A stretch of 64,000 bases of DNA from Synechococcus sp. (GCA_047285805.1 JBJBCN010000002.1:352001-416000); one strand, 5' to 3'; shown: positions 18,200 through 35,058, numbered from the stretch's first letter. Notes: generated by a model from the sequence alone, not told the origin. Numbers and translations are program-made.

Positions 18200-20049
18200 A
18201 GCTTGGCGCCGCAGTTGGGGCAGTAGAGGCTCGAGCTGGAGGTGGTGTGGTGGCAGCTGTGGCACTCACGATTGGTGTCGATCGCCAGTTCCGGATGGGA
18301 GGGCAGACCCACCATCTGGGCGTTGCTGGCACCGGGGGGAACCATCGGGTAGCAGTTTTCGTTGCGGCGAACCTTCACCTCGATGAAGGCGGGACCGGGG
18401 TGGGCAAGGGCTTCGGCGAGCTTGCTGCGCAGCTCCTGTCGGCCTTGGATCTGCACCCCTTTGACCCCAAAGGCTTCAGAGAGTGCTGGGAAGTTGGGCA
18501 TCCCACCGGTCATCTCCGAGGCGCTGTAGCGCTCGCCATAGAAGCTTTCCTGCCACTGACGAACCATGCCCTGCCAGCCGTTGTTGAGCACCACGACCTT
18601 CACGGGCAGGTGGTACTGGCTGAGGGTGCCCAGCTCCTGGATGTTCATCAGGATGCTCGCGTCGCCGGCTACGCAGATCACCGGCTCCTCGGGGAAGGCG
18701 CACTGCACCCCCATCGCAGCCGGCATGCCGAAGCCCATGGTCCCCAAGCCCGCCGAGCTGATCCAACGCCGCGGAAGGGTGTGTAGGAATTGTGCGGCCC
18801 ACATCTGGTGCTGGCCGACGTCTGTCGTGAAGAAGGCCTTCGGGGAGAGCTCTTGCAACATCGAGACCACCTCCTGGGGGGCGATGTCGCCTTCGGGAGC
18901 GGGCACTACCAAGGGGTAGTGCTGCTTCCACTGGGCAATTCGCTCCAGCCAGGCTTCGGTGCGGCCTCGGGAGTCTTCTTGGCTTGAAGCCGCCAGCAGG
19001 GCTTCCACGGCCAGTTTGACGTCAGCCACCACAGCGACGTCCGGCAGACGGGTTTTGCCCATCTCGGCGGCGTCAATGTCGATGTGGATGACCTGGGCCC
19101 GCGGGGCAAAACCATCCAGACGTCCGGTGACGCGGTCGTCAAAACGGGCGCCCACCGCGATCAGTAGGTCGCAATCGGTCACGGCGAAGTTCGCATAGGC
19201 GGTGCCGTGCATCCCAAGCATCCCCACCGAGAGGGGGTGGAGCTCATCGAAGGCGCCCTTGCCCATCAAGGTGGTGGTCACGGGCAGCTGGAAGCGCTCA
19301 GCCAGGGTGTAGATGACCGAGTGGGCGCCACTGCTGATGGCGCCGCCACCGACGTAGAGCAGTGGACGCCTGGCCAGGCGAATCAGCTCGAGAGAGGCCT
19401 CGATGGCACTGTGGTCCGCTGCGGGCGGCAGCTTGAAACCGGGGGGAATCGCTGCGCCGGGTTCAACCGGGACGTAGTCAAATTCCTCGACACCCACGTC
19501 CTTGGGCACGTCGATCAGGACGGGACCCGGCCTCCCGCTGGAGGCGATCAGGAAGGCTTCCGAGACGATGCGGGCGATGTCCCTCGGATCGCGCACAACC
19601 CAGGAGTGCTTCACGATCGGCAGGGTGATGCCGAAGATGTCGGTCTCTTGGAAGGCGTCCGTGCCGATCGCAGCCCGCGGCACCTGCCCTGTGATCACCA
19701 CCATGGGCACTGAGTCCATGTGGGCGGTGGCAATGCCCGTCACCAAATTGGTAGCGCCAGGGCCGGAGGTGCCAAAGCAGACGCCAACCTTTCCGGTGGC
19801 TCGTGCGTAGGCGTCAGCAGCATGAGTGCCACCCTGCTCGTGGCGGACCAGGATGTGCTTAAGCCAACCCCGGGACTCGGCTTTGTGAAGTTCGTCGTAG
19901 ATCGGAAGGATGGCGCCGCCCGGATAGCCAAAGATCGTCTCGACGCAATGGCGCCTCAGTGCATCCATCAGGGCGTAGCCGCCACTCACCCGGGTGGGGG
20001 TGGAGTGTTCAGCGGCGGTGGCCGCTTTCGAAACGGACGTCACGGTCAC
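18196..20049 (-). CDS. ilvB: Acetolactate synthase large subunit (biosynthetic)
   Basis: [30 protein letters not shown] and GDAS...NN TPP motif; start uncertain. Confidence 0.96.
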
Positions 20050-20289
20050 GGCGGCGGCGGACAGCGTATTCAGATCCAATCACCCTAAGGTCTGGTCTGA
20101 GAAATGGGCGCTTCAACCCTCTGGCGTCAGTCATTGCTCGCAGCACGACCACCGGGTCCAGCCAGCGGTTCCTTATCTTCACCCCCCAGTGCAGGTGTGG
20201 GCCGCTGCTGCGGCCGCTGACACCAATGGCGCCTAGACGCTCACCGGTTCTCACCATGGAGCCTTGCCGCAGTTCTACCGCTCCTAGGT
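20009..20289 (-). pseudogene. M23 family metallopeptidase, displaced 3' half
   Basis: LGAVELRQGSMVRTGERLGAIGVSGRSSGPHLHWGVK...WLDP is a typical M23 C-terminal segment with HxH. No M23 N-terminus lies directly upstream. Confidence 0.85.
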
Positions 20290-20381
20290 ATGCATCGGGA
20301 ATACCGCTGCAACTCCTGAACTTCTCTTGATCTGACGGTCGGGCTGCTTTCCAAAGCACGCTCCGACCTCGGAAATAGGGG

Positions 20382-20405
20382 ACCCCGAGATTGCCGTCTC
20401 GGGGT
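20382..20405. repeat. 9-bp perfect inverted repeat near the left end of the element
   Basis: ACCCCGAGA-ttgccg-TCTCGGGGT. Confidence 0.7.
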
Positions 20406-20524
20406 TGTTCCTCAGGAATAAAGCACGGAAGACCACGCTAAACCAGAGCAACTAACAGCGGTTTTCTACCCGAGGAACGGCGTCAGGGGCAACCCACGTA
20501 GCGCTCCAGTGGAGTGCGCAACAG

Positions 20525-21136
20525 TTGAACCGCACTACCTATCGCTCCCTCGACGCCGAGGTCGGCTGCCTGCAGGCTTCGATCTTCAAAGAGATCCGTC
20601 GTTGCCTACGACTCAACGGCGGCACCGTCGATGCCAACGGCATCAAGTGGGTCTGGCGCAGCGCCGTCTCGCTGGCCGAGCTCTTCGGCGTCAACGAGAA
20701 AACGATCCGCCGTCACCTGAAAGCACTGGTCAGCCTGGGCTGGCTGAAGCGCGACAAGCTCCAACGCAAGTGGGGTTGGCAGGTCTACCACTACTCATTG
20801 GGCGACAACGCTCCTTTGAAGGGAGTGCCGCATCAACCAGAACAGAAGGCCCGCACTGATGCGGACATGGTGTCTGCTTCTATAAACAGCAAGACCACTT
20901 CCCAGAAAATTCACCACCAGCGCCGAACAGCCAGTCGACCTTCGGTCTCCCAACAGCCGAGAACGGAGCAGTCCCGAGTGGTGACGGCCAAGGCTCTGGC
21001 GACAACCGGAAACTGCTGCCCGGTGCCCAGCGACTGGCCTGAGCTCGATCTGTATGCAACGGCCCTGGCCATCGAAAACACCCGCAATCAATTCCCGCTG
21101 CTGCGCCGCAGGGCTGTCGGATTCGGAGCCGCCTGA
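20525..21136 (+). CDS. Winged-helix/HTH protein, replication-initiator-like
   Basis: WVWRSAVSLAELFGVNEKTIRRHLKALVSLGWL HTH followed by a low-complexity C-terminus. Confidence 0.7.
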   Translation: MNRTTYRSLDAEVGCLQASIFKEIRRCLRLNGGTVDANGIKWVWRSAVSLAELFGVNEKTIRRHLKALVSLGWLKRDKLQRKWGWQVYHYSLGDNAPLKGVPHQPEQKARTDADMVSASINSKTTSQKIHHQRRTASRPSVSQQPRTEQSRVVTAKALATTGNCCPVPSDWPELDLYATALAIENTRNQFPLLRRRAVGFGAA

Positions 21137-21573
21137 GAACAGGCATCAACCCCCCCCCCTGCAGCGCAAGGGATCTTGTTTCAACTGACAGGAGTCAACC
21201 AATGACCGCCATCACCGGAAAGGCCCTGCTCTTCACGGAGTTCCTGGAGCTAATACCCCAACGCTCACAACACTCCTGCAACGTCAGATCAGGAGTACCC
21301 ATCGAAGTTGTCACTGCTGTCACCGCACTGCTGGCACTGATGGCATCGACAACAGGGGCCAGTTGCCAACTGCAGAGGGCAGTGCTGTCACTGGCGGCAG
21401 CGTTTTTGTTGATGGCTCAGGCAGCTATTGCGTGAAGAGCCGGTGATGGGTTCAGGTGCTCAATCATTCACAGTGGAGAGTATCAATCCTCCTCGTCTGA
21501 TTCACCGTACGGAAACAGCTTGACCTACTTGCGGCTGAGCTTGATGTTGGAATTAACTCAGCTGTCAACACAG

Positions 21574-22512
21574 TTATTGATGTTCATGGCAGTGTTGATG
21601 GTTGGTCTCAAGTTGCAGGGTGCTCTTTCGAATACCAATCTTTGCCAGAGACTGCCTGGCGATGCCGATCACGCGTTCCCCGTCAACGGCGTCGTTCTCA
21701 AGAACGAGATGGGCTGTTAGGGCCGTTCTGGCGGTGCTGATACCCCAGACATGCAGCTCCTCCACGGCCGCCACGCCGGGTAGCTGTTGGAGCAGTGATT
21801 CGACAGCGCCCAGATCCACCCCCCGCGGAGCCGCATCGAGATTGAGCGCAACCGCCTCCCGCAGCAGATCAATTGCGCTCCAGATCACGGCGGCGCCAAC
21901 GCCGATGGCAGTGATCGCATCGAGCCACAGCCAGCCGGTGAAGCCCACCAGCAGGGCACTCACCAACACCGCAACAGACACCGCTGCATCCGTGAGCAGA
22001 TGCAACACCGCCGCCCGTTGATTCAGATCGTGGTGGTGGTCGTGGCCAAACAACTTGGCTGAGAACAGGTTGATCACGATGCCTGCAGCGGCAGCCCAGG
22101 CCACAGGGGCCGCGATCAAAGGCACAGGGTTAGCAAGCCGTTGGATGGCTTCCACGACCACCACCACACCAGCCGAGAAGATCAGCAGACCGTTGATCAG
22201 TGAGGCCATCTGGGTGCTGCGCCCGAAGCCATAGGTGAAACGGCCCTTTGGCGGCCGCAGGCTGAGCCATTCAGCGCCCCCGCCGAGCACCAGGCCGATC
22301 ACATCGCCGAGGTTGTGGAGGGCATCGCCAACCAAGGCGAGGGATCCAAACCCGAAGCCGATCACCAGCTGCAAGGCGGTGAGACCGCTGTTAAGCGCGA
22401 TGCTCCAGCGGAAGGCTGCACCAGCAGTGCGCTGAACACGATGGTCATGGCTGTGGGCATGATCATGACCTTGCTGATCGTGGCCGTGGTGATGGCGGTG
22501 TCCAGCTCCCAT
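21574..22512 (-). CDS. Cation diffusion facilitator (CzcD/ZitB-like) exporter
   Basis: His-rich N-terminus; SLALVGDALHNLGD, FTYG, HLLTD, LHVW motifs. Confidence 0.93.
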   Translation of the reverse strand: MGAGHRHHHGHDQQGHDHAHSHDHRVQRTAGAAFRWSIALNSGLTALQLVIGFGFGSLALVGDALHNLGDVIGLVLGGGAEWLSLRPPKGRFTYGFGRSTQMASLINGLLIFSAGVVVVVEAIQRLANPVPLIAAPVAWAAAAGIVINLFSAKLFGHDHHHDLNQRAAVLHLLTDAAVSVAVLVSALLVGFTGWLWLDAITAIGVGAAVIWSAIDLLREAVALNLDAAPRGVDLGAVESLLQQLPGVAAVEELHVWGISTARTALTAHLVLENDAVDGERVIGIARQSLAKIGIRKSTLQLETNHQHCHEHQ

Positions 22513-22515
22513 CGC

Positions 22516-22716
22516 TCAACCCTCCGCCTGAGCCGCTAGGTAGGCGGCGATCATCTCGTTCATGCCTTGCTGGGTACGGCCGTGGGGCCGGTATCCCTTG
22601 GCCGCCCAAACGCGATCGAGCTCCATGCGCAGCTCGGGTGTGATCCAACAGGAGAGCAACACCTTGCCCTCCCGGCTGGAGGTGCAACGCTTGGTGGCCA
22701 CTGGGCGTTCGCTCAT
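22516..22716 (-). CDS. Small hypothetical protein
   Basis: 66-aa ATG ORF ending 3 bp before the CDF start, suggesting co-transcription. Confidence 0.5.
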   Translation of the reverse strand: MSERPVATKRCTSSREGKVLLSCWITPELRMELDRVWAAKGYRPHGRTQQGMNEMIAAYLAAQAEG

Positions 22717-22791
22717 GTCACAGTTAATGTATACAAGTGCTCAGTGGGTTTTGCTCTCCCCCTGGCAGTTGGGTTTGGAGTCCCCTGTTGG

Positions 22792-23043
22792 GCCGTGGAC
22801 AAGTTCCAGGGTCAAGAGGCCCCGGTTTCCATCCTGTCGTTGACGGCGAGCAGCGCAGAGGAGGCGCCGCGTGGCCTGGGTTTCCTGCTCTCGGCCAACC
22901 GCCTGAATGTGGCGATGAGCCGGGCGCAATGCCTCTCGATCGTGGTCGGCTCACCGACGCTGGCGGCAGGATCGGCGAACAACGTCGAGGAGGCGGAGCA
23001 ACTCAACAGCCTCTGCCGAATCATTCAGGCCAGTCAGACCTGA
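22792..23043 (+). pseudogene. C-terminal fragment of a superfamily 1 (Upf1/DNA2-like) helicase
   Basis: VDKFQGQE and NRLNVAMSRA (motifs V and VI); no Walker A or other N-terminal motifs. Confidence 0.8.
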
Positions 23044-23058
23044 GCCGATCCCCCTCGA

Positions 23059-23556
23059 CTAGGACTCGGCAGTGAGGACCTGCTGCGTGACCGGGAAAGA
23101 GCGGCAGGTCAGTGGAAAGTTCGTGAGCTGCGCCCGGCGTGCAACAAAGCCAGAGAGCGAATCGAGGTTGATGACCAGGCTGTTGGGGATGACATACAGC
23201 AGCGTCAGACGCTGGTCGTCGCGGATCGGAACCGGTGTGATGTGCAGCTCATCGTCCCTGAAGGTGTAACTGAAACGCCTCTTGTCGTCTGCGTCTCGCT
23301 TAAAGGACGGTGGTAGGGGAGCGAGCTTGTTGTGTTCGCGATCAAAGGCATAGAGGCGCTTGGCCTGCTTGGAGTAGGTCCAGCCCTGGCCTTGGTCGGA
23401 CGCAAATGTCTTGCTGGCCTCGTCGGTGAAGCCGTTCTCATCCTGCAAGCAGACCACTCGTTGGATGTCTTGGTCTGTCGACAAGGGTCCAGGGCTGCCA
23501 GAGCAACCGACAAGCAAGGCAGCTGTCACTGCGAGGAACAAAGGACGTGGCGGCAT
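23059..23556 (-). CDS. Hypothetical lipoprotein
   Basis: Signal peptide with LVGC lipobox; 165 aa. Confidence 0.7.
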   Translation of the reverse strand: MPPRPLFLAVTAALLVGCSGSPGPLSTDQDIQRVVCLQDENGFTDEASKTFASDQGQGWTYSKQAKRLYAFDREHNKLAPLPPSFKRDADDKRRFSYTFRDDELHITPVPIRDDQRLTLLYVIPNSLVINLDSLSGFVARRAQLTNFPLTCRSFPVTQQVLTAES

Positions 23557-23954
23557 GTCAGCGACAGAGAACTGAGCCCAACCACTTGAAGAGAACTGCC
23601 AGCAGGGAGGGGCAGATCAAGAGTGGGACGTCATTCCTCGCACGGCACAAGCTTGAGAGCAGAACCAAGCTCGTCGCTCCCTCTCCTCTTGCGTTAGAAG
23701 CGCCAGCAGGGCCATAACCACTAAGGACACGGTCGAGTGATTCCCCGTGATCCGAGACGGGGGAGTGCCAAGCTCCCCCACCTCAATGCTCCTAGCTGGG
23801 CGCTGAGGGGAAGTGACGTGTTCGCGTTCAACCTCCACTCTCACTGGAAACAGGCCATCAGGTCCGCTCTCAGCGGCCGGGAGGCATCGCCGGCAAGAAG
23901 TTTCGTCAAGGATTAGCAGTAAATACCTTCCGCCGTGGGAAAGTTCACAGTCAT

Positions 23955-24116
23955 ATGCACGATCTACAGACTCCCTTTGGGTTCTTTGGAGAACTGGTCG
24001 TCGGATCCGCCTTGCTCCTCATGGCTCGATCACTCAAAGAAGTCGGATTACTCGCTGCAGCGTTCTTGGTCGGCTTCGTCGCCCTCGAAACCTGTTTGCG
24101 CATGAACGGTCTGTAA
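23955..24116 (+). CDS. Possible small membrane protein (53 aa)
   Basis: Hand translation: MHDLQTPFGFFGELVVGSALLLMARSLKEVGLLAAAFLVGFVALETCLRMNGL. Confidence 0.3.
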   Translation: MHDLQTPFGFFGELVVGSALLLMARSLKEVGLLAAAFLVGFVALETCLRMNGL

Positions 24117-24159
24117 GGGAACCAGCCCCCTCCCTGTAACCGCGATACCACTGCGCTTC

Positions 24160-24369
24160 ATGACTGAATGGCTTAAGAGCCCAAGCGGCAATAGGGTTGC
24201 CCGCTTTTCTGGTACTGGTCTAGGCCGAGCTGAGGTCACAAAAGCGCGTAAAGCGGGTTGGTCTGATCCTCTGGTCGAGCGGCACGATGTGATGAGTCAG
24301 TCGCAAGCCCAACTGCAGTGGCATGGGTTACGCAGTGAGGGATGGACGGTCACTAACCCACAGTGGTGA
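24160..24369 (+). CDS. DUF1651-like small picocyanobacterial protein
   Basis: WL.SP.G...F N-terminus and W..L...GW....PQW C-terminus; family recalled from memory. Confidence 0.55.
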   Translation: MTEWLKSPSGNRVARFSGTGLGRAEVTKARKAGWSDPLVERHDVMSQSQAQLQWHGLRSEGWTVTNPQW

Positions 24370-24944
24370 AACCAGGGCGGGCAGAAAACTGGACTTGAGA
24401 GCTGAGGGAAGGAAGTAACTCAGGCAACTGTCGTGTCGGTCCTGGAAGTAACAGCTCCTGGGTCGGGCTAGGGGAGGAAGCCGCGTAGGGGGAGCTGCAC
24501 TTTCACCATCAGGTGTTTCCCCAAAAAAGCAGCACTGGCGATTACTGCTTTCTCGGGCAGCATTTCACATGGAAAGCGTCCGCGCGCTGTGCGCAAATCT
24601 TCTTAACTAATGCGATCTCGGATCCATGTTGGAGCGGTTAATCAATCCGCTTTTGCTGTAAGCCTAAAAACCACAGGTCGCTCATCTTCTGGATCAGTGC
24701 AAGCGTTAACGACTCTGTTCTTGCAAAAAGCAATAAGTTTGTTTTGCGCCTTGCCTTGGATAGGCCAGTTTTAGGTTGAATGCTTTTGGCGCCTTCACTG
24801 ATACCTATTCTGTTGATTGGTTGCGAGTTGGGCACGCTCTTGATCGAAGCGGCCAGCTGGTCCTCTCCCGGTTACCCGGCGCTTCGTTCCGCCGTTAAGA
24901 GTTCAAGGGATCAGCGGGTGTGAAGACTGTTCTCGTGTAGTTTG

Positions 24945-25070
24945 CGGGCCTGGTTTCAGCAGTGATCAGCTGCTGAAGGAAACGGGGAAAGTCCGGTGGA
25001 AATCCGGCGCTGTCCCGCAGCTGTGAAGCGGCTTCAACAGATGCCGTCAGTCAGAACGCCCGCCAGTTCA
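24945..25070 (+). promoter_or_regulatory. Cobalamin (B12) riboswitch
   Basis: GGGGAAAGTCCGGTGGAAATCCGGCGCTGTCCCGCAGCTGTGA core and AGTCAGAACGCCCGCC B12 box, directly upstream of hupE/ureJ. Confidence 0.92.
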
Positions 25071-25087
25071 ACACGACGAGGATCGAA

Positions 25088-25717
25088 ATGACTAAGGACT
25101 TGCGCGGCCAGCGCTCAGGCCTTGCACTGGCTTTTTGTGGCGCCACAGTCGTCCTGAGCTGCAGTCCAGCTCTGGCGCACCATCCCTTTGGAATGGGCGA
25201 CTCAAGCAATTTGACTGCTCTTCAAGGCCTATTGAGCGGAATCGGTCATCCCCTGCTTGGACCCGACCACCTGCTCTTTTTGATTGCGATCGCTTTTATT
25301 GGCCTTCGCAAGCCAACAGCTTGGGTTCTCCCCCTTCTGGCAACAGGTCTTCTGGGCAGCCTTGCATCCCAGATCGTGCCTCTTCCAGATGCAGTCGCAC
25401 CGTGGGCAGAAGCGATTGTTTCCTTGAGCTTGGCGCTTGAAGGCTTGATTGCCTTGAACAAGCTCCCGGCCAATCTTCTTCTGCCCCTAGTCGGCCTACA
25501 TGGCTTTTTGCTCGGCAGCACGATCGTTGGAGCAGAACCAACCCCGTTGTTGACCTATTTCATTGGTCTTCTGGTTGGCCAGGGTGCTCTGCTTCTTGCT
25601 GTGTGTGCGGGTGCATCACGTTTGCGTGAATGGCTAGGTGCAAACGGCCAAAGGCTTGCTGCGGGAATCTGGATGGGTATTGGTATGGCCTTTGCCTGGG
25701 TGGCCCTCATCGACTGA
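25088..25717 (+). CDS. hupE: HupE/UreJ family Co/Ni transporter
   Basis: ALAHHP, GIGHPLLGPDHLL, GLHGF motifs; located behind a B12 riboswitch. Confidence 0.9.
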   Translation: MTKDLRGQRSGLALAFCGATVVLSCSPALAHHPFGMGDSSNLTALQGLLSGIGHPLLGPDHLLFLIAIAFIGLRKPTAWVLPLLATGLLGSLASQIVPLPDAVAPWAEAIVSLSLALEGLIALNKLPANLLLPLVGLHGFLLGSTIVGAEPTPLLTYFIGLLVGQGALLLAVCAGASRLREWLGANGQRLAAGIWMGIGMAFAWVALID

Positions 25718-25761
25718 ACTCAGTTTGACGTTGATGTTCAGCACGATGAATTAAGTCAGTC

Positions 25762-26559
25762 ATGTGGAATGTGCATGAGCAAGAACTCTTTGCTTTCTTG
25801 CTCACACTTGGTGCTGGTTTATCGACCGGTATCGGCAGTTGGCTCGGGGTGCTCAGTCGCCGTTTCAGCCCAGGCCTGCTGACCACCGCTTTGAGTTTTT
25901 CTGCCGGCGTGATGATCTTTGTCTCCTTCGTGGAGATCTTCCCGAAGGCGCGTCAGTCCCTGACCCCTGCGCTGGGCACTAGCACCGCTTACTTGGTGAC
26001 GGTCCTGGCGTTTTTTGCAGGGATGTTGGCGCTGGCGCTGATCGATCGGCTGCTGCCGTCCCATGAGCTGGCGATCCTGCCGTTGCGGGAAGGGTCTGAT
26101 TCCTCGGCCCTGATGCGCACGGGCTTGTTCTCGGCCCTCGCCATCGCGATCCATAACTTCCCCGAGGGGCTCGCCACCTTTGTGGCGGCTCTGTCTGAGC
26201 CCCGGCTTGGCATTGGCATCGCCATTGCCATCGCCATCCACAACATTCCTGAGGGGCTGGCGGTGTCAGCCCCCGTCTATTACGCGACCGGCAGCCGCAC
26301 TCAGGCCTTCTGGATTTCCTTTGCCTCCGGATTGGCGGAACCGCTCGGAGCGCTCATCGGTTACGTCTTTCTCCGCTCGTTCCTCAACGACGTGGTCCTC
26401 GGTCTGGTCTTCGCCAGCGTCGCCGGAATCATGATCTACATCTGCTTTGACGAGCTGCTGCCGGCGGCGCAGCGCACTGGTGCGAAGCACCATCTGATGA
26501 TGGTTGGCGTCACTGCCGGCATGTTGGTGATGAGCATCAGCTTGGTGATGCTCGCCTGA
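25762..26559 (+). CDS. zupT: ZIP family divalent metal transporter
   Basis: AGLSTGIG, HNFPEG, HNIPEG, SGLAEPLGA, DELLP. Confidence 0.92.
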   Translation: MWNVHEQELFAFLLTLGAGLSTGIGSWLGVLSRRFSPGLLTTALSFSAGVMIFVSFVEIFPKARQSLTPALGTSTAYLVTVLAFFAGMLALALIDRLLPSHELAILPLREGSDSSALMRTGLFSALAIAIHNFPEGLATFVAALSEPRLGIGIAIAIAIHNIPEGLAVSAPVYYATGSRTQAFWISFASGLAEPLGALIGYVFLRSFLNDVVLGLVFASVAGIMIYICFDELLPAAQRTGAKHHLMMVGVTAGMLVMSISLVMLA

Positions 26560-26584
26560 AGGCGGACCACTAATTTTCTCCTGT

Positions 26585-26605
26585 CGAAAAGAATCAATCT
26601 TTTCG
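26585..26605. promoter_or_regulatory. Palindrome upstream of the porin gene (candidate operator or terminator)
   Basis: CGAAAAGA-atcaa-TCTTTTCG in an AT-rich intergenic stretch. Confidence 0.4.
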
Positions 26606-26658
26606 TTTAAAGCCTCTATTAATCGCAGTTAATTACTTTTCCCCACTCCCTCTTAAAA

Positions 26659-28215
26659 ATGAGAAGCTTTCAAAACTTTCTCCTCGCGCCTGCAGCTCTG
26701 GGCCTTCTGGCTCCTGTTGCTGCAAACGCCGCTGACGTCAACATCGCCGGCCTGAGCCAGTACGGCACCGAAGAGCAGGTGACTTCGATCACCCAGTTCT
26801 CCGACGTGCAGCCCACCGACTGGGCTTATCAGGCACTGAGCAACCTGATCGAGCGCTACGGCTGCGTCGCTGGTTACCCCAACGGCACCTACCGCGGCAA
26901 CCGTGCGATGACCCGCTATGAAGCGGCCGCACTGCTGAACGCTTGCCTCGACCGGATCACTGAAGTGACCGACGAGCTCAAGCGCCTGATGAAGGAATTC
27001 GAGCGTGAGCTGGCTGTGCTCCGCGGCCGCGTGGACGGCCTCGAGGCTCGCGTCGGCGAACTGGAAGCCTCTCAGTTCTCCACCACCACCAAGCTGCGTG
27101 GTCTGGCCACCTTCGTTGTGGGTGCCAACAACTTCAGCGGCAATGCTCGGCAACTTGTTGATGAGAACAAGGGAAAATTTGCTGCAGCGACATTTAACTA
27201 CGATTTGCAGTTGAATATTGACACCAGTTTTACTGGTAGAGATTTACTGCGTAGCACACTTCGCGGCGGAAACTTTGACGGGACCTGGAATTCATTTGGC
27301 GGAGCCGGCCCAAGCAGCTTGTCACAACTAGAGGTTGCTTTCCAGGAGGAAGGTGGAGCAGATGTCGTAGGAATTGACAGGCTTTTCTATCAGTTCCCTA
27401 TGAATGACTTTATTTTCTCTGTGGGACCTCGGGTTGCGCAAGAGGACATGCTTCCCATTTGGCCATCGATTTATCCCGCAAGTGCAGTCCTGGACCTTCT
27501 GACGCTAGGAGGCGCGCCTGGGGCATACAACAAAAATCTAGGTTCTGGTGCTGGTATCTCTTGGCAATCCAATGGATATGCAGTCGGAGCTAACTATGTT
27601 GCTGCGAATGGTCGCAACGGAGATCCTTCTCAAGGAGGAATTGCCACCGCAGGATCTGGTGGAACAGGGTCTGTTCAGCTGGGTTATGCATCTGGAGAGT
27701 GGGGCATAGCCGCCCTTTACTCGCGACTTCAGAATGCAAATGACCTGTTCGTATATGGAACAGACTTCACCCTCGAAAGTTATTCCAAACCTGGCACCAC
27801 AAATGCTTTCGGTGTAAGTTCTTACTGGCAGCCACAGACGACAACTTGGATTCCGTCGATCAGTGGAGGCTGGGGCATCAACTCAACCAGTTACGCAAGC
27901 TCTGTTGTCAGTCGTGGGCTGACAGCCATCAGCCAGTCTTGGAGCGTTGGTCTTCAGTGGAGTGAGGTCCTGCGTCAGGGGAACTCTTTAGGAATGGCTG
28001 TTGGCCAGGCTCCTTTTAGTACCGAACTCGTGGGAGGGGAATCTCTCACTGATGGAAACTTTGCTTGGGAGTGGTGGTACAACTATCAGGTTTCAGACAA
28101 CATCTCCATTACCCCGGCACTCTTTTACCTGAGCCGGCCATTAGGTGATGCAACTCCAAGCAATACAAGCTTCAATCAGCTTGGCGGCCTAGTCAAGACG
28201 AGCTTCAGGTTCTGA
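26659..28215 (+). CDS. Cyanobacterial outer-membrane porin (SLH + OprB-type barrel, Som family)
   Basis: FSDVQPTDWAYQAL SLH domain, coiled coil, QFSTTTKL, terminal F. Confidence 0.93.
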   Translation: MRSFQNFLLAPAALGLLAPVAANAADVNIAGLSQYGTEEQVTSITQFSDVQPTDWAYQALSNLIERYGCVAGYPNGTYRGNRAMTRYEAAALLNACLDRITEVTDELKRLMKEFERELAVLRGRVDGLEARVGELEASQFSTTTKLRGLATFVVGANNFSGNARQLVDENKGKFAAATFNYDLQLNIDTSFTGRDLLRSTLRGGNFDGTWNSFGGAGPSSLSQLEVAFQEEGGADVVGIDRLFYQFPMNDFIFSVGPRVAQEDMLPIWPSIYPASAVLDLLTLGGAPGAYNKNLGSGAGISWQSNGYAVGANYVAANGRNGDPSQGGIATAGSGGTGSVQLGYASGEWGIAALYSRLQNANDLFVYGTDFTLESYSKPGTTNAFGVSSYWQPQTTTWIPSISGGWGINSTSYASSVVSRGLTAISQSWSVGLQWSEVLRQGNSLGMAVGQAPFSTELVGGESLTDGNFAWEWWYNYQVSDNISITPALFYLSRPLGDATPSNTSFNQLGGLVKTSFRF

Positions 28216-28217
28216 TC

Positions 28218-28610
28218 TCATTGATCAGAAGCATGGTGTTCACTGCAGGGCATCCATAAAGAGCCCATCGCGTGAGCACCATTGCAGCCCAATTCTGCGG
28301 CCTTCTCCAGTGCAATCTTTTTGCTGGGGTAGGCCATTAATTGCTTTTGTTCAGAGAAATTTGCATGGTGTTCATGAGTGTTGCTGGGTGCAAGTGACCA
28401 AAGGCCCATCGCATTGATGCCCGTGACCGCAATACCCATCCCCACCACGCAAGCGTTGAGGATTCCCATGCCAACCACGCCGAGGCTGATAGCGCCCATT
28501 GGCACCACGCCAATACTCACCACCCCCATTGGCACTACGCCGATCGAAACGATCCCTAGTGGAGCTATCCCAATAGCGAGTAGCTTTGGAGGCTCATTGC
28601 AACTGGACAT
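28218..28610 (-). CDS. Membrane protein with 10-aa Gly-rich repeats and a C-terminal DUF3721-like domain
   Basis: PxGxxSxGVV repeats, then GCNGAHAMGSLWMPCSEH. Confidence 0.7.
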   Translation of the reverse strand: MSSCNEPPKLLAIGIAPLGIVSIGVVPMGVVSIGVVPMGAISLGVVGMGILNACVVGMGIAVTGINAMGLWSLAPSNTHEHHANFSEQKQLMAYPSKKIALEKAAELGCNGAHAMGSLWMPCSEHHASDQ

Positions 28611-28619
28611 GGCTTCTTT

Positions 28620-28886
28620 TTAGTGATTCGTTGCGGCTGAGTGGGTTCCCATTTCGTGGGATTTGCACGGCATCCATAGCTCCCCCATGCGATGAGCGCC
28701 TGTGCAGTTGAAATGCTTTTTGGCTGCTTCCTCTGCTTCGGTTTTTGTTGCATACATTGCTGGCACTCCCAAAGTATTGGCATTGGCGCTCTGTAAAAGG
28801 AGAAAAGACGACGCAGCTACTATCAATGCGGCAGCAGTGCTCTCAACTTTCCCGCAAGGGCTATTGAAATAAGTTATAGTCAGCAC
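28620..28886 (-). CDS. DUF3721-like exported Cys/His protein
   Basis: MYATKTEAEEAA...CTGAHRMGELWMPCKSH; start uncertain. Confidence 0.7.
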   Translation of the reverse strand: MLTITYFNSPCGKVESTAAALIVAASSFLLLQSANANTLGVPAMYATKTEAEEAAKKHFNCTGAHRMGELWMPCKSHEMGTHSAATNH

Positions 28887-29240
28887 GATTAGTCAAAGCA
28901 AATCTAAAGGCATTTTGTACTTGCAGGCAGATGGTGTTCATGTAAAGACACTCGCGCAGCTTTCACGCGTCCCCTCCAAATTAGCAAGGATCAAAAATTC
29001 CCTAGTCTTTTCGAGGGAGGCGCTCCGCAGGTCAGACGGAGCGGCGAGACTAACTCCACCGCTGCACACACAGTGCCTAAAACAATCTCGAAGACTAACG
29101 CCAAAAAGCTGCACAGTTTCGATGCGGCTTATTCGCGATCATGAAAGCTGGAGGCGACAAAAGAGGGGCAAGAGAAGACTTATTCCCTGCAGCCCATTGC
29201 AAGCGGAGAATGATCAGTCAAACTATACATAGACAACCTT

Positions 29241-29627
29241 GTGGCCATGATAGTTGAACAACGACGCTACAAGCGTCCGCTCAAAGATCTCTCCCCAATC
29301 GAATACCAGCTCCGCAAGACCAATCGAGTCCTGGAGAAACTCCGCCGTCACGAACGCGATCTACTCGCTCTGCCTCACTCCCGATCCAAACCCGAACGCC
29401 TACGCCGTTGCCGTCAGCGCATTGCTGATCAACGTCGTATGTATCGAGCCTTCCAGATCGCTGCTTACCTCCTCGGCCTCAAGGTTTGGCCTAAACCCAC
29501 CCAACGTGAACTCAACCCCTGGGCTGAAACAAACAAACCAAACACAATTCCGTCTCCTCCCTCTTGGTTGACTGATCAATTCGATGACTTCAACATTAAT
29601 GCAGATCTAGATGACATCGCAGCATGA
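29241..29627 (+). CDS. Hypothetical basic helical protein
   Basis: 128-aa Arg-rich ORF; start uncertain. Confidence 0.55.
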   Translation: MAMIVEQRRYKRPLKDLSPIEYQLRKTNRVLEKLRRHERDLLALPHSRSKPERLRRCRQRIADQRRMYRAFQIAAYLLGLKVWPKPTQRELNPWAETNKPNTIPSPPSWLTDQFDDFNINADLDDIAA

Positions 29628-29791
29628 CAACATCTCTAACCAGTCATACTCAAACACTCATCCGTAATGGCGAATCCACCCGTTGGGTCAACGTCATTGC
29701 CTCAACTAACGATCACCTCACCATCTCCATCCCAGGTGCTGGTATCCAACGCATCCCAGCCTCTCTAGCCGTCCCTCAATCCACCTCCTAA
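29624..29791 (+). CDS. Small hypothetical protein (55 aa)
   Basis: ATGA overlap with the previous stop; MTTSLTSHTQTLIRNGESTRWVNVIAST...; followed by a terminator. Confidence 0.5.
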   Translation: MTTSLTSHTQTLIRNGESTRWVNVIASTNDHLTISIPGAGIQRIPASLAVPQSTS

Positions 29792-29817
29792 CTTCAATCC
29801 GTAGAAGCAGGTCCCAC

Positions 29818-29850
29818 GCCCTCACGCTCGCCATCGCGTGGGGGCTTTTT
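29818..29850 (+). terminator. Intrinsic terminator
   Basis: GCCCTCACGC-tcgccatc-GCGTGGGGGC stem (one G-U pair) followed by TTTTT. Confidence 0.75.
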
Positions 29851-30477
29851 ATTGCTCTCTCCCTCTCTGCTTCCTTGATGCACTCCCGATGCATTAGTGA
29901 TGCATTGGTGTGGGGGATTTTGCTGCTTTTCTATGAGCGGCTTCACGTACATACATACGGGCGCAGTCGCCCCCCGTGGGGGTCGGCGGCAAGGCCTGGG
30001 GGTGGGGATACGGATGAAGGTCACGTCGTCCGGCTGGCCAGGGCGCCGTTGGCCTGCGTCGTCCACGCCATAAAAGGGTTGGGGCGCGTAGAAAAAAAGC
30101 GTTCCGACCTGCCGCTGAAATTCAACGGTGTGCCCTTCAACCAAAGACGAGACGCCCGCGCGTTTCCTTTAAGGGCCAAGGCTGGCCAACCGGTTCCGAT
30201 CGGTGTTGATGGCGGCAATGACTGAGAGAGCACTGCCGATTGCACCGATGGCGTCACTGGTGGCAGTGGACTGATGGCACTGACAGCAGGGCCACCACAA
30301 CCCAACGGTTTCGGCGGGGCGCCACAACCTGGGGCCTGGCCACCGCCACAACAGGGATTGAAGGCCAGCGAAACGGTCCTTCGCCTTGATCCAGCGAAAG
30401 GGTGTGCTGTATGGTTTCGGTGGGCCAGCGCAGCGCCAACTGCCTGACCCGTGATCAATCCAGATGGAGCTGGACCG

Positions 30478-31068
30478 ATGACTAAGAGTTTGAGCAGTGG
30501 CCAGTGCATTGGCTATGCACGGGTCTCAACAAAGAGCCAGAGCGTTGAAGCCCAGGTGGCTGAGTTGAAGGCTGCAGGGGCCACGAAGGTCTTTGCAGAG
30601 CGCATCAGCACAAGGACAGCTGACAAGGACAGAACACAGCTGCAGGCCTGTCTGGCGTCACTACACAAGGGAGATGAGCTGGTGATCACCAAGCTCGACC
30701 GCCTTGGCAGGACTCAACGGGAGGTCATCAACCGACTGTGTGAGCTGCAGGAAGCAGGGATCAACGTCAGAACACTCGACAACCTGATCAACACCGCAGC
30801 ACTGGGGAAGATGGCTCCGCTGGTGGTTGGCCTGCTCACTGGTCTTGCTGAGGTTGAGCGTGAGCTGATCCGCGAGCGGACCCTGGCCTCTGTTGAGCAC
30901 CGCAGGGCAACTGGCGGGAAGCTCGGGGGAAGGCCTGCCAGCTTCACTCCAGAGCAGGCGCAGCAGGTCCATCGGATGCTGTTGGAGGGCATGTCCCTGG
31001 CCGCTGTAGCCCGAGGGACAGGGCTCTCGGAATCAACCTGCAGACGAATCAGGAAGCAAGCAGTTTGA
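30478..31068 (+). CDS. Small serine recombinase (resolvase/invertase) with C-terminal HTH
   Basis: GYARVST, GDELVITKLDRLGR, AEVERELIRERT, GGRP and an HTH. Confidence 0.93.
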   Translation: MTKSLSSGQCIGYARVSTKSQSVEAQVAELKAAGATKVFAERISTRTADKDRTQLQACLASLHKGDELVITKLDRLGRTQREVINRLCELQEAGINVRTLDNLINTAALGKMAPLVVGLLTGLAEVERELIRERTLASVEHRRATGGKLGGRPASFTPEQAQQVHRMLLEGMSLAAVARGTGLSESTCRRIRKQAV

Positions 31069-31084
31069 GGCCCTCCGAGGAGGT

Positions 31085-31120
31085 CAATCAACGTCAGATC
31101 AACCATCAATGCGTTGATTG
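31085..31120. repeat. 9-bp perfect inverted repeat downstream of the resolvase
   Basis: CAATCAACG (31085-31093) and CGTTGATTG (31112-31120), flanked by GAGG/CCTC. Confidence 0.7.
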
Positions 31121-31324
31121 CCTCGCAACAGGAGGGATCCATGCTCACAACGGCGAGAAAGGCGAGGCTTCAGCCCTTCCTCAACGCTCTTCAGCTCAGG
31201 ATTTCGCTCACAAACACATGTACGAGTAACGACCCAGCTCTGGAGGGGCTTTATTGCTGCATTTGATGCTCCGGGGAGCGCTACGGGGAAGGGCGCAACA
31301 GAGAAGCCTCCAGGAAGCTGTTTA

Positions 31325-31399
31325 AGAGGCTCCTAGAGGCTGAATCGAGGCGATAGAGGCGAAAGGAGCTCTAGAGGCCTTGTAGAGGCTTTTAGAGGC
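31325..31399 (+). repeat. Helically phased (TA)GAGGC direct repeats
   Basis: GAGGC starts at 31326, 31336, 31347, 31356, 31374, 31385 and 31395. Confidence 0.8.
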
Positions 31400-31412
31400 C
31401 GATTAGGAGTCT

Positions 31413-31643
31413 TTAGCGATCAACAGGGAGTTGTTCGATCTGATCGAAGCGTTCTTGGAGGCCAGGGTTGTTCTGAGGGTCGGTGACGAGGCCGTGTACG
31501 CGGCGGAGCGTCCATTCAGCGTTGAAGAGTTGCCAGAGGCGCTGTTCTGGTGTTTCGCGGTGGATGCCTGTGTAGGGGCGGTCTTCCGGGGGGAAGTGGC
31601 TATAGCCAGGGCGTTCAATACGCGTTGCAGGCTGATGAGACAT
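31413..31643 (-). CDS. Small hypothetical protein
   Basis: 76-aa ATG ORF co-oriented with the upstream Rep-like gene. Confidence 0.5.
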   Translation of the reverse strand: MSHQPATRIERPGYSHFPPEDRPYTGIHRETPEQRLWQLFNAEWTLRRVHGLVTDPQNNPGLQERFDQIEQLPVDR

Positions 31644-31759
31644 ATGCGCTATGCAGCTTGATCAACGATAGCGAGGCAGGGAGCAAGTGACACCTGATCA
31701 ACATCAACACAACAAGACTCATTTGTCTTGAGGTCAACAACAGTGCAGCGTTCATTCTC

Positions 31760-32788
31760 TCAGTCGTATGAAGTCACAACACAGTGACGATCATTCAACA
31801 AAACCTTGTCACCAGGCATGAGGCTGGAAGGCTTTGGAGTCAACAAGTGATTGTTATCAACAACAGCAGGACGATCATGGATACCCCTGATCTTGATATT
31901 CGCTGCTGATCTTGAGCTGGGGGCTTTGGAGCGCTCAACACCGCCCCCGAGGAAGTACCGAACGAATGGTTGCTCGGGGTCGAGGAGGTTCTGGGGCAGG
32001 GCGTAGCGATTGCCCGAGCCGTGGCAGAGAACAACGCACTGATCAACAGGGCGCTGCCCTTCAACCAAAAAGCGCTGATCCCTGAGCATGAGCTCCTCGT
32101 GATTGCCGAAGGCTGATTTCAACAAAGCCCTGAGCTCTTTAGAGCAGGGCTCAACACCAGCGAGGCTTTCAACCCGATTGAGGAAGGGGAAGGCCTCGAG
32201 AACGGGATCAACCTCAACCGATTGGGGTGTGTTGACCTCTGATTCCGGCTGTTGGGCTGCTTCCCTCTTAAGAGAACTTTTTTCTGGAGTCTCTAAGACT
32301 CTTAGTGGTGACCCCTCATTGGGGGTCAGGGGGTGACCCTTCTGGGGGGTCAGGTGGGGTGACCCCTCATTAGGGGTCAGGGGGTGACCCTTCTGAGGGG
32401 TCAGGTCTGCTGATTTCCGTGCTTTGGCCCACGGCCAGCGAACGTCTTTCGCACGTGCTTGGTTGCGGTGCTCTTGCAACAGCAGCTCAAAGCGATCGGA
32501 CTCAACAGCGGGGCCAAGCTGCAGGGTGCTGGGCTTGCCTGGGATCTTGATTTCGGTGAGCAGGCCAGCCTTCACCAGGGCGGCCTTGATCTCGCCAGGG
32601 CGTCGGCGGTTGATGTCGAAGGCGACGGCCTCGGAGGCCACGCTGATGGATCGTGAACCGTTGGTTGATGTATCAACCATGCCGAGTAGGTGCATGGCGA
32701 TGTTGAGTTGATCGCGTGACTTCGCGTTGATCAACCAAGCAACAGCGAACTGCTGGTCAACGGGGTTGAAGAAGAAGCTGCGGGACAT
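31760..32788 (-). CDS. Putative replication initiator with internal iteron-like repeats
   Basis: HTH-like N-terminus (...IKAALVKAGLL...) and a central duplicated TPQKGHPLTPNEGSP encoded by palindromic DNA repeats. Confidence 0.6.
   Translation of the reverse strand: MSRSFFFNPVDQQFAVAWLINAKSRDQLNIAMHLLGMVDTSTNGSRSISVASEAVAFDINRRRPGEIKAALVKAGLLTEIKIPGKPSTLQLGPAVESDRFELLLQEHRNQARAKDVRWPWAKARKSADLTPQKGHPLTPNEGSPHLTPQKGHPLTPNEGSPLRVLETPEKSSLKREAAQQPESEVNTPQSVEVDPVLEAFPFLNRVESLAGVEPCSKELRALLKSAFGNHEELMLRDQRFLVEGQRPVDQCVVLCHGSGNRYALPQNLLDPEQPFVRYFLGGGVERSKAPSSRSAANIKIRGIHDRPAVVDNNHLLTPKPSSLMPGDKVLLNDRHCVVTSYD
32309..32403. repeat. Four palindromic TGACCC-N7/8-GGGTCA sites (51-bp tandem duplication), candidate iterons
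   Basis: Sites at 32309-32328, 32334-32352, 32360-32379 and 32385-32403, next to an AT-richer tract at about 32266-32305. Confidence 0.85.
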
Positions 32789-33131
32789 CGGTTGGCATGA
32801 GCGTTGTGGGGATATGGCGTTACGATTCCAAGGTGCTCTTTTGCTATTCCCGACTGAGCTCTAAAGGCGTCGTCTTGGGTGGGCGGCACCTTTTTTAATG
32901 GGAGCTTGGAGTGACCCTGGCGACAAGGAATGAGCAGGGCAACTAACCGATAAGTAGAGCTAATAAAGCCCGCTGTTTCAGTACTTTGGGCTTGCCGATT
33001 GTTGTTGATTGATTCCATCCAATAGCTGCACTGCAGCGTGAGGATCAACGCCGCCATGCATTGCGGGTATCAACAATGCGTTGTCGGTTGATGCTGCCCC
33101 TGGTGAGGCTTGGGGAGGGTGTCAGCTGGGC

Positions 33132-34739
33132 TTATCCGCCTCTCCTGAGCCCTCTTAGGCGCCTTTCCTCGGGAGGCGTGGCGATGTCCTTTGCGTTGGC
33201 ATCCACGGCCTCCCACCACTCAAACGTCCTGCTCAGCGCCACGTTGTCGCTGATGCCTTCCTCGAGGCCGAGCTGAATCCGCTGGTCTTCGGGGCTGAGG
33301 CTGTCATCGTTGAGCTCAAAGCGTTCCTTTTTCGTCGCTGGATCGAAGCTCCACTTGAACCCGAAGCGACCGCTGGCGACTTCAATCACCCAACGGTTTT
33401 CAACGCGAGCCCCGAGTTCGGCGTCGTCGATGGCTTCGAGCAGTTGTTGGTCCGTCAGCTCCCATGGCTGCGCGAGCAACGGGGTGAGTCGTTCGATCAG
33501 CTGAGCGGTGGTGACCTGCGAGCCATGCATCCTGCTGACTTCCTGCTCGATCGCCTTTTCCTTTTCCGCGATCAGCGGGCCGGTGCCATCAATGTTGAGA
33601 GCCCTCAGTGCGGTCAAATCCGATCTCAGCTTGAGCAGCTCCTTTGATTCCACGGCCTCGCGGCTGGCCATAGCGGCCTTGAGCGGAGCCAACCGCTGGA
33701 CCAACGCCGGGCCCATCCATTCAATGGCGCGGCAGATCGAGGCTCTGGCGCTGGCATCGAGGATCGAGTTGGCGCCGTACCGCTGAGAGCAGTCGGCGGT
33801 GATGCAGCGGAGCCGACCATGGTGGCGCCCCATACGGATGCCGCACTCATGGCAACGGAAGTGCCCTGTTCGCCAGCTGCGTTGGGTTGATTGCCTGTGA
33901 GCGGAAGCGCCTCGAGCAGTGGAGGCTTCGAGCGCCCGTTCAACCTCAGTCCAGGTTGCTCTGGGGATCAATCCCTGGTGGCGGTCCCATTCGATGGAGT
34001 CATAGACGCCAGGCCTTGGGCCTTTGCGCTTGCGGGTGCCATCGGGCAGCGTCACCCAGGTGCCAGCGCAGCGGCCAATGCCGCCAGCGATGGCTGGGTT
34101 CTTCAACCAATTTCGGAAACTCAGCCTTGGCTTGTGGATCCCGTGGGTTCGGTTGAGCCAGAGCACGGTTTCTTGGATGCTCCGGCTTCTGAGGAAGTGC
34201 TCGATTGCTCCGCGAGAGACCTCCTCGAGTTCGGGGTCAACCACCAGGCCCAGGCCATCGGGCGCTCGCAGGAAGCCCCATGGAGGTTTGCCACCGTGGC
34301 CTCCTTTGCTCTGGCGGTGTGCTCTGCCGTGGGCGACGCGCTCGGCCAAGCGTTCAACTTCACCGGCATTGACCGCCGAGAGCAGTCGGGCTGTCATGCG
34401 CCCGGCAACGGTTGAAACGTCGAGGCCGTCGTCCAGCAGTCGGAGGTTGGCGGTGCCTTCCCGAGCAAAGAAGTCGAGCAGCTTTTCGTTGAACTTGGGG
34501 CTTCGGGTGATCCGATCCAGCCGGGTGGCGATCAGGGTGTCTTCGGGGCCCAGCAGAGCCAGGGCTTTCTTGAGTTCGGGCCGGTTGTCCTGCGTCCCGC
34601 TCTGCACATCAGAAAAGATTTCAGTGCAGCCAGCGGCGACAAGGCGAGCTTTCTGCTGCTCGAACGCCGAGGAATCGCGGGCCTGCTCCAGGCTCGAGAC
34701 TCTGGCGTAGCCGATCAGCGACATTCCCCCTTGCAGCAT
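33132..34739 (-). CDS. Large serine recombinase (integrase)
   Basis: GYARVSS catalytic motif, TRLDRITR, KPPWG recombinase domain, CHEC...C...C zinc ribbon and coiled coil; 535 aa. Confidence 0.93.
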   Translation of the reverse strand: MLQGGMSLIGYARVSSLEQARDSSAFEQQKARLVAAGCTEIFSDVQSGTQDNRPELKKALALLGPEDTLIATRLDRITRSPKFNEKLLDFFAREGTANLRLLDDGLDVSTVAGRMTARLLSAVNAGEVERLAERVAHGRAHRQSKGGHGGKPPWGFLRAPDGLGLVVDPELEEVSRGAIEHFLRSRSIQETVLWLNRTHGIHKPRLSFRNWLKNPAIAGGIGRCAGTWVTLPDGTRKRKGPRPGVYDSIEWDRHQGLIPRATWTEVERALEASTARGASAHRQSTQRSWRTGHFRCHECGIRMGRHHGRLRCITADCSQRYGANSILDASARASICRAIEWMGPALVQRLAPLKAAMASREAVESKELLKLRSDLTALRALNIDGTGPLIAEKEKAIEQEVSRMHGSQVTTAQLIERLTPLLAQPWELTDQQLLEAIDDAELGARVENRWVIEVASGRFGFKWSFDPATKKERFELNDDSLSPEDQRIQLGLEEGISDNVALSRTFEWWEAVDANAKDIATPPEERRLRGLRRGG

Positions 34740-34797
34740 GGGTAATCATCATGTTACTCTCCCGCTGCGTAGCCGGCCGTCCTCGACGCTTCCCAGG

Positions 34798-35044
34798 GGT
34801 GCTCGTAGTTGCCCGAGCGGATCGCCAGGCCGATACCGCAGCTCTCGTCATCGATGAGCCTGTCCACGCAGTCGCCCCACCAACTGAGCGCGGGGGACCC
34901 CAGCGGCGCGGCAATGTCCAGGCCACGGTGGGTGCGTGAGCCTCTGGCCCGCCAGCCGAAATGGCTGGTGTAGCCGCTGAACTGCGGGACCTGGAACTGG
35001 GCCAGGCGCCACTGGTTGGCCTGAACCGGAGAGGCAACCAGCAC
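34798..35044 (-). pseudogene. M23 family metallopeptidase, 5' half
   Basis: YTSHFGWR...THRGLDIAAPLGSP...CGIGLAIRSGNYEH (HxxxD motif); M23 similarity stops abruptly after EH. Confidence 0.88.
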
Positions 35045-35058
35045 GGCGGTGGCCAGAC

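Follow-up and report, generated by a model that had tools for sequence, protein, structure and literature searches.

Two pieces of a gene for an M23 peptidase lie 14.5 kb apart on the minus strand of a 64,000-nucleotide stretch of Synechococcus sp. DNA (GCA_047285805.1, JBJBCN010000002.1:352001-416000; hereafter the window, with G000 for the genome that carries it), with hemH and ilvB on either side and a gene for a large serine recombinase between the pieces. A preliminary description of the window took the intervening DNA to be an excisable element that may gate a cell-wall hydrolase by restoring its gene. The question raised by this locus is whether removal of the element would return a functional M23 gene. 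The alignments presented here show that it would not, and the element is very probably an integrative cargo island that carries its own serine integrase and inserted into the M23 gene. The insertion would be of an ordinary kind, with no genetic switch involved.

The interrupted locus

The closest relative with an intact M23 gene, G023, has a 213-aa product and served as the reference for the junction alignments. With this protein as the tblastn query, residues 18-106 match window positions 35065-34799 (79.8% identity, E 2e-43) and residues 123-213 match positions 20284-20012 (83.5% identity, E 3e-37), which bears out the earlier statement that the two halves lie on the same strand 14.5 kb apart; the presence of a 535-aa serine recombinase between them likewise agrees with what had been described. 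The 5' piece (34764..35065, minus strand), delimited by tblastn and blastn against G023 and by its translations, is read in two frames: frame A from 35065 to 34799, which includes the HRGLD motif, and frame B from 34793 to 34764 (GSVEDGRLRS). The 3' piece (20009..20282, minus strand), which has the GPHLH motif, was found by tblastn and is matched by Pfam Peptidase_M23; its tail overlaps the start of ilvB, as the preliminary description had said.

Upstream, the host flank is hemH (35059..36246, minus strand), encoding a ferrochelatase with a C-terminal CAB tail (Pfam Ferrochelatase, E 8e-118) whose protein is 97.5% identical to its G023 counterpart. The downstream flank is ilvB (18196..20079, minus strand), for the acetolactate synthase large subunit (Pfam TPP_enzyme N, M and C). 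When the 5' piece was used to retrieve loci from relatives, 14 of 14 had a single whole M23 gene directly between hemH and ilvB, and the GC content is 50-58% within the element, compared to 62-65% in the flanks. A second, independent assembly, of what is likely the source run, shows 0 differences to the window over 19500-23772 and 27096-35084. The split of the M23 gene is real and far beyond chance. A database search found no uninterrupted M23 allele at >79% identity.

Junctions and limits of the element

The two M23 pieces tile the G023 gene with an overlap of exactly 2 bp, GG, and blastn shows no further loss at the junction: the 5' piece tracks G023 as far as ...CTACGCAGCGG, and the 3' piece does so from GGAGCGGT on. 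Because the overlap is exactly GG, we place the junction cores at 34763-34762 and 20284-20283. At the recombinase end (core 34762..34763, minus strand), where the matching metagenome contigs also end, the host arm before the GG finishes ...CTACGCAGC and the element arm starts GAGAGTAAC; at the far end (core 20283..20284, minus strand), defined by blastn and by the fusion proteins described below, the element arm ...GCATACCTA gives way to the host arm AGCGGTAGAA.... The element proper occupies 20285-34761, or 14,477 bp (14,479 bp with one core copy), and precise excision at GG would remove 14,479 bp. A core of 2 bp, at which no bases are duplicated or lost, is what large serine recombinases leave. 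The recombinase ATG is at 34739, 22 nt from the junction core and not about 60 bp inside the right junction, as had been thought. In the inferred attP (element attachment site), 12 of 24 positions are dyad symmetric.

The preliminary description had put the crossover at a shared ACC (34800-34798 and 20289-20287); alignment to G023 gives GG instead. Joining at ACC does, as stated there, remove 14,511 bp and leave an open 174-aa frame, but it skips 16 residues of G023, LYCHLQGSVEDGLLRS. Ten of these (GSVEDGRLRS) are present at 34793-34764 in the other frame, and tblastn finds GSVEDGRLRSGRV just past the ACC breakpoint, at 34793-34755, also in the other frame. Intact homologues carry a segment, within a range of 10 to 20 codons, that the ACC join lacks, which is the outcome the preliminary description had itself named as contrary to its reading; we rejected this join since it is open, yet omits sequence that homologues have. 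Two other placements were tried. A GGAG core with one extra G, for which the indels would cancel (net -12), needs a 1-bp insertion relative to G023 and is also ruled out by the metagenome matches, which begin at 34763 with the first G of GG and then the element arm. Placing the element end at 20273, with GGAGCGGTAGAA as element sequence, would require a 10-bp host deletion at the other junction, and the fusion proteins read host PVEEPTG directly after ...AYLG.

The joint expected from excision, 20284 to 34764, is absent from the source-run contigs, which carries no weight because assembled contigs drop rare forms. One contig of the likely source run (X1), with a depth of 9.8 compared to about 556 for the chromosome, joins 19632 in ilvB to 35470 in hemH; it skips 15,837 bases and has merely 22 letters on one side. 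This contig is probably an artefact or else derives from a related strain, present as a minority, whose locus is uninterrupted; it is not the excision joint.

Consequences of excision for the M23 gene

M23 enzymes are marked by an HxxxD motif, a middle YxHL histidine block and an HxH motif. In the window, a 13-bp deletion relative to G023 (a blastn gap of 13) directly follows the His codon at 34801-34799, and leaves five bases (34794..34798, minus strand) where the aligned homologues have 18 bases coding for [LIT]YCHL[QAS]. All 19 intact homologues examined (14 from the relatives' loci and 5 database proteins) carry this block, which in M23 enzymes holds a conserved active-site histidine. The host gene is frameshifted at the GG join because of the 13-bp deletion: the joined gene reads ...NYEHPWEASRTAGYAAER and then a stop, 15 codons past the deletion. 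Frame 0 of the join reads ...SGNYEHPWEASRTAGYAAER and then a stop, its last residues being ...YEHPWEASRTAGYAAER (ending ...YAAER), while frame 2 takes up the remainder of the gene, with GSVEDGRLRSGAVELRQG...GPHLH.... The rebuilt gene retains HRGLD and HLH, in halves that are in different frames, and YCHL is gone; the three motifs that had been described as standing together in M23 order do not do so.

A separate lesion near 35055, just past the hemH stop, consists of 8 bp that are missing by comparison with G023, so that the leader (...FMPSGSSK) is out of frame with the hydrophobic stretch and the mature domain. There is also a TAA in the window, opposite a Ser codon that lies four codons into the G023 open reading frame (ORF), and the longest ORF of the 5' piece starts at a GTG merely eight codons ahead of the mature domain. 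The lesions are not assembly slips, since the two assemblies agree base for base there. As judged from these alignments, the M23 gene is now a pseudogene with three lesions, and excision cannot restore it. The proposal that excision rebuilds the frame is contradicted by the frameshifted GG join, the deleted YCHL block and the uncoupled leader; the accompanying caveat, that the gene may simply be decaying, we judge the better reading.

The M23 tail (...LKRPFLRPDLRV...HRR; window 20009-20110) is in a different frame than the ...RPETPISQARP of the homologues, and the same is seen in G023. This frameshift, common to the window and G023, is older; it overlaps the ilvB start and is tolerated in the otherwise intact G023 gene.

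The large serine recombinase

The recombinase gene (33132..34739, minus strand) encodes a 535-aa, XisF-like protein, recognized through Pfam, PHROG and NCBIfam and through an AlphaFold2 (AF2) model. Residues 9-147 match Pfam Resolvase PF00239 (E 1.2e-25), the GYARVSS motif is nearly invariant in 13 recombinase relatives, and profile matches in the PDB are to Gin and gamma-delta resolvase. PHROG 95 (integrase) covers residues 5-404. The XisF model of NCBIfam (NF041201) aligns over residues 9-422 with 224.1 bits, below its 375-bit cut-off, so that the protein is not an XisF equivalog by this measure, although XisF is the nearest curated family; in plasmid records, the best match is to a Trichormus variabilis gene that bears the annotation xisF, at 34% identity over residues 1-300. 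Four cysteines, C296, C299, C312 and C317, are invariant in the 13 aligned relatives. The AF2 model (mean predicted local distance difference test score, pLDDT, of 75) matches the full-length serine integrases 9dxh, Bxb1 (9iu2) and PhiC31 (9rah) over about 550 aligned columns, with a best E value of 3.6e-14, and also matches the C-terminal domain of the LI integrase (4kis_B). We conclude that the protein belongs, by its profiles and predicted fold, to a divergent clade of XisF-like large serine recombinases.

This clade is rare. Of 301 family genomes, 20 matched the recombinase at E<=1e-10, the best non-self match having 33% identity, and none of the 19 non-self loci has M23, hemH or ilvB. Among 400 other family genomes, one matched at E<=1e-60. 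The neighborhood in G161, of which 35 kb were examined, is unrelated. The protein database holds twelve relatives at 54-59% identity and an eight-member cluster at >=90%. The source names of homologues are Synechococcus and Vulcanococcus; both genera are unicellular. No relative came up when JGI metagenome, GTDB genome and IMG/VR contigs were scanned with the single protein, scans with the recombinase alignment (A1) gave distant relatives alone (21-41% identity; three non-cyanobacterial genome loci and one metagenome locus), and the plasmid and phage collections likewise gave distant recombinases alone. XisH and XisI (PF08814 and PF08869) were not found in G000, in a search for which control genomes gave no match either, and had no Pfam match among 29 element ORFs scanned.

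Copies elsewhere and a second target

Related copies of the element are found elsewhere. Of the words sampled from 33000-35200, 0.82 are present in each of ten metagenome runs, which come from seven studies (sea, biofilm, aquatic, freshwater and power plant); this value is close to the fraction of that interval lying inside the element. Contigs of three metagenome runs match the window from exactly 20273 to exactly 34763, at about 96.5-99.8% identity, and beyond the match ends their sequence is unlike the window; one continues for 414 bases.

A second target is shown by database proteins. A search with the far-junction ORF found P0038, with P0063 and P0064 in its cluster. All three start with the element-end peptide (M)LWKAARPSDQEKFRSCSGIPDAYLG (...SGIPDAYLG) and go on with PVEEPTGVGHWSVAIGWDP... 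(PVEEPTGVGHW...), which is the C-terminal part of a 330-aa gene product with Phage_lysozyme and Peptidase_C39_2 domains, intact in G023 (91% identity). The switch point falls directly after ...CCTA GG, as in the window, and the uninterrupted G023 site reads ...CACCAG GG GCCGGTCGAAGAA. The match end at 20273 would fit a lysozyme/C39 flank, in which GAA is followed by GAA rather than CTG. The truncated N-terminal lysozyme/C39 product expected from the other junction was not found among 24 matches or the listed cluster members. In both contexts the downstream part of the target is in frame with a leader of 25 residues that the far end of the element provides along with its start codon (window 20009-20359, minus strand), and gene callers therefore predict fusion proteins such as P0038, P0063 and P0064, which are predictions only.

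The lysozyme/C39 gene is lacking in G000, where the sole trace is a match to 45 N-terminal residues at 55.6% identity (C2:987469-987594). Because of this absence, the M23 site probably serves as a look-alike and is secondary to another target. In their host arms, the two targets have 14 of 24 and 10 of 24 bases in common. Since related copies occupy another gene, the choice of insertion site appears to follow a sequence preference of the recombinase and not the regulation of M23.

Gene content and proposed origin of the island

About 13 kb of other genes separate the recombinase gene from the M23 3' piece. From the far end inward, the island begins with a gene for a helix-turn-helix (HTH) protein like the O-like replication initiators of phages (20525..21136, plus strand; Pfam HTH_36), whose matches to the PHROG replication-initiation families 428, 270 and 391 (E 2e-10 to 5e-9) make this a weak assignment. 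Next is a CDF cation-efflux transporter (21574..22512, minus strand; Pfam Cation_efflux, E 5e-38; NCBIfam CDF, 211 bits), followed by a fragment of a helicase and an ORF with DUF1651. Then a cobalamin riboswitch (24934-25081, plus strand; Rfam RF00174, 59.9 bits, E 6e-13) directly precedes three plus-strand genes: hupE/ureJ (25088-25717; Pfam HupE_UreJ), zupT (25762-26559; Pfam Zip; NCBIfam ZupT, 337 bits against a cut-off of 252) and a Som-type porin (26659-28215; Pfam OprB and SLH; NCBIfam iron uptake porin, 273 bits against a cut-off of 100). A B12 riboswitch ahead of hupE points to cobalt uptake, and this riboswitch-led hupE-zupT-porin operon most likely serves cobalt and zinc uptake; window 24934-28215 would amount to a mobile, B12-controlled metal-uptake operon.

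Toward the recombinase there are genes for two small DUF3721 proteins (28218..28886, minus strand; Pfam E 2.5e-14 and 1.3e-15) and for a 205-aa small serine recombinase of the resolvase/invertase type (30451..31068, plus strand; Pfam Resolvase, E 1e-31, and HTH_7), which matches the DNA invertase family PHROG 125 (E 1.5e-49). Two minus-strand ORFs between 31760 and 33057, of 342 aa (31760-32788) and 108 aa (32731-33057), have no Pfam, PHROG or NCBIfam match below the thresholds. The element is single-copy in the genome. Its zupT has a 91%-identical chromosomal paralogue (C2:493044-493805), and four copies of the N-terminal part of the porin (window 26678-27251) are found at 89-96% identity. 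Because of these zupT and porin copies, the cargo appears to derive from close relatives.

We propose the following origin. The large serine recombinase would have integrated the 14,477-bp island between hemH and ilvB by conservative attP x attB (host attachment site) recombination at a GG dinucleotide, the recombinase gene coming to lie at one end of the island and the replication-initiator-like gene at the other. The cargo would be concerned with metal homeostasis, through the CDF efflux pump and the cobalamin-riboswitch-controlled hupE-zupT-porin operon. The island probably landed in the M23 site owing to the resemblance of this site to the usual lysozyme/C39 target, which is absent here, and the insertion would have inactivated the M23 gene, which also bears the 13-bp and 8-bp frameshifting deletions. 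In this account the split, its junctions, the lesions, the genes carried and the second target are read from the sequences, whereas the recombination mechanism, the sequence of events, mobility at the present day and the role of the cargo are inferred.

Alternative explanations

According to the reading first offered for this locus, a domesticated intervening element of the skin or fdxN kind would, by its excision, rebuild and so gate an M23 cell-wall hydrolase. Such a reading accords with a gene interrupted by an element that has a serine recombinase at its edge, with XisF as the nearest curated family of that recombinase (NF041201, 224 bits, and 34% identity to the xisF-annotated record), and with the open frame of the ACC join. 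That open frame, however, is gained by dropping 16 G023 residues, ten of which lie beside the junction in the other frame, whereas the GG join is frameshifted and soon reaches a stop; the catalytic-region YCHL block kept by 19 of 19 homologues is deleted, and the leader is frameshifted too. The XisF score is under its cut-off, the XisH and XisI families were not found in a genome search that had no positive control, and in other populations the element occupies a different gene. With a gene that cannot be rebuilt and an element that sits in another gene elsewhere, we see no support for regulated excision and assign gating next to no probability. Switching might nonetheless be sought at the level of the clade, in view of the GxVE coding motif that is cut after its G in both targets, the M23 gene and the GH24-lysozyme/C39-peptidase gene: XisF-like recombinases of this type may prefer peptidoglycan-hydrolase genes, with reversible on/off switching of the hydrolase in hosts whose target is otherwise intact, as in the populations with the lysozyme/C39 site, or a truncated hydrolase fragment could be expressed. 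This idea we consider very improbable; if true, unicellular picocyanobacteria would be using a cargo island in the manner of phase variation.

A prophage or phage satellite would also bring a serine integrase, an O-like replication initiator and several ORFs of no recognized family, all of which the element has. None of 18 ORFs scanned against PHROGs, however, matched a capsid, terminase, portal, tail or lysis family, the recombinase has no IMG/VR match, its best phage matches are Bacillus phage integrases at 24-25% identity, and the cargo consists of transporters, so a phage origin seems very unlikely. More deserving of attention, if still doubtful, is the possibility that the two deletions came first and the element then landed in dead DNA, an M23 pseudogene that still resembled its preferred target. 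Two independent frameshifting deletions besides the insertion would be expected from this order of events, and identity of 96-99.8% to copies elsewhere suggests that the element arrived recently; but the segment past the 13-bp deletion still encodes GSVEDGRLRSGAVEL, identical to homologue P0029, so that the decay is recent too. This alternative differs from insertion of a cargo island into the M23 gene in the order of events alone, and the data do not order the three events. The island reading itself has evidence to contend with. Neither an excised circle nor an empty site was found in the assembled contigs, which drop rare forms, and no directionality factor was identified. The C-terminal part of the recombinase has no match to Pfam Recombinase PF07508 or zinc-ribbon PF13408; its zinc ribbon and coiled coil are present by predicted fold, in a model with a pLDDT of 75. 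The assignment of the metagenome flanks to the lysozyme/C39 site rests on three predicted fusion proteins and the match ends. The likeness of the two targets appears real but modest, and by plain identity it is not unique: the M23 site scores 19 of 32 against the G023 lysozyme/C39 site, a score reached at 373 GG-centred positions among the 4,720,700 positions scanned in the genome. We consider that these points temper the interpretation of the element as an integrative cargo island, which we continue to prefer.

Relation to known elements

The fdxN element of Anabaena/Nostoc with its recombinase XisF is similar in that a cyanobacterial large serine recombinase edges a gene-interrupting element, the XisF model NF041201 aligns to the island recombinase, and there is 34% identity to an xisF-annotated record. 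The differences are that the island recombinase scores 224 bits, under the 375 cut-off, its host gene is not restorable, its cargo is made up of transporters, its homologues come from Synechococcus and Vulcanococcus, and XisH and XisI were not found for it (in a search without a positive control). In Bacillus subtilis, the skin element with SpoIVCA, and SPbeta in spsM, are reportedly excised precisely to yield an intact, functional gene in a terminal cell. There, as here, an element with a serine recombinase splits a gene with both halves on the same strand, but the rebuilt M23 gene would be frameshifted and without its active-site block. Because restoration of an intact gene, the defining feature of the skin/fdxN class, failed when tested, the island falls outside that class, and the proposal that a unicellular cyanobacterium has a gene switch of the developmental type is not sustained.

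A closer parallel is offered by the tycheposons and cryptic integrative elements of Prochlorococcus, in which niche-adaptive cargo travels in marine picocyanobacteria together with a replication-related gene and an integrase that acts at specific sites (10.1101/2020.12.28.424599). The island has an integrase, an O-like replication gene (weakly assigned) and transporter cargo, and nearest to it by gene content is the minority of these Prochlorococcus elements, tycheposon-type or cryptic, with a large serine recombinase. Unlike these elements, the island sits in protein-coding genes, and no tRNA gene is found in 19500-35500; its host is of the Synechococcus type and its recombinase clade is rare. 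Integration at tRNA genes is typical of tycheposons with tyrosine recombinases. By its gene content, we regard the element as a tycheposon-like integrative cargo island with an XisF-like integrase; in its mode of action it would resemble other integrative elements that depend on serine integrases.

The integrases Bxb1, PhiC31 and A118/LI share with the island recombinase a predicted fold (9dxh, 9iu2, 9rah and 4kis) and a 2-bp core without target duplication, at 12-16% identity; in contrast to these systems, the island has no phage genes and at least two natural targets. The TnpX/TndX transposons Tn4451 and Tn5397 are, by their description, also elements with a large serine recombinase; they use more than one insertion site, and the sites have a dinucleotide core and a degree of similarity in common. 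They have a GA core and resistance or conjugation genes, and occur in Firmicutes, whereas the island has a GG core, metal-transport cargo and a cyanobacterial host. In the literature on tycheposons, serine recombinases and Synechococcus zinc biology we did not meet an M23-inserted element, though no search was aimed at it.

What remains is ordinary but of use: an island of 14.5 kb whose limits are precise, whose attachment arms and GG core are defined, and whose integrase is of a rare XisF-like clade. It may still be mobile, and appears to move a cobalamin-riboswitch-controlled module for cobalt and zinc uptake, together with an efflux pump, among estuarine and coastal populations of the Synechococcus type. 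To the tycheposon-like elements of picocyanobacteria it adds one that has a serine integrase. Its two natural targets offer a specificity test for a new serine integrase.

Minor observations

Within the island, a repeat of about 90 bp at 23704-23792 recurs at least 10 more times, with 77-100% identity, on contigs C2 and C3, and the source-run assemblies break at this repeat. Beside the small resolvase, at 30015-30278, the metagenome variants X7 and X8 differ from the window, with 78 and 136 bases skipped or replaced; 12 other letters stand in for the 136 bases, so that the spot adjoining the small serine recombinase gene is a variable one. Outside the island, the ilvB product ends in a short zinc-ribbon-like extension, CHSCHH...CPNCG (window 18196-18290), to which the Pfam zinc-ribbon matches are weak.

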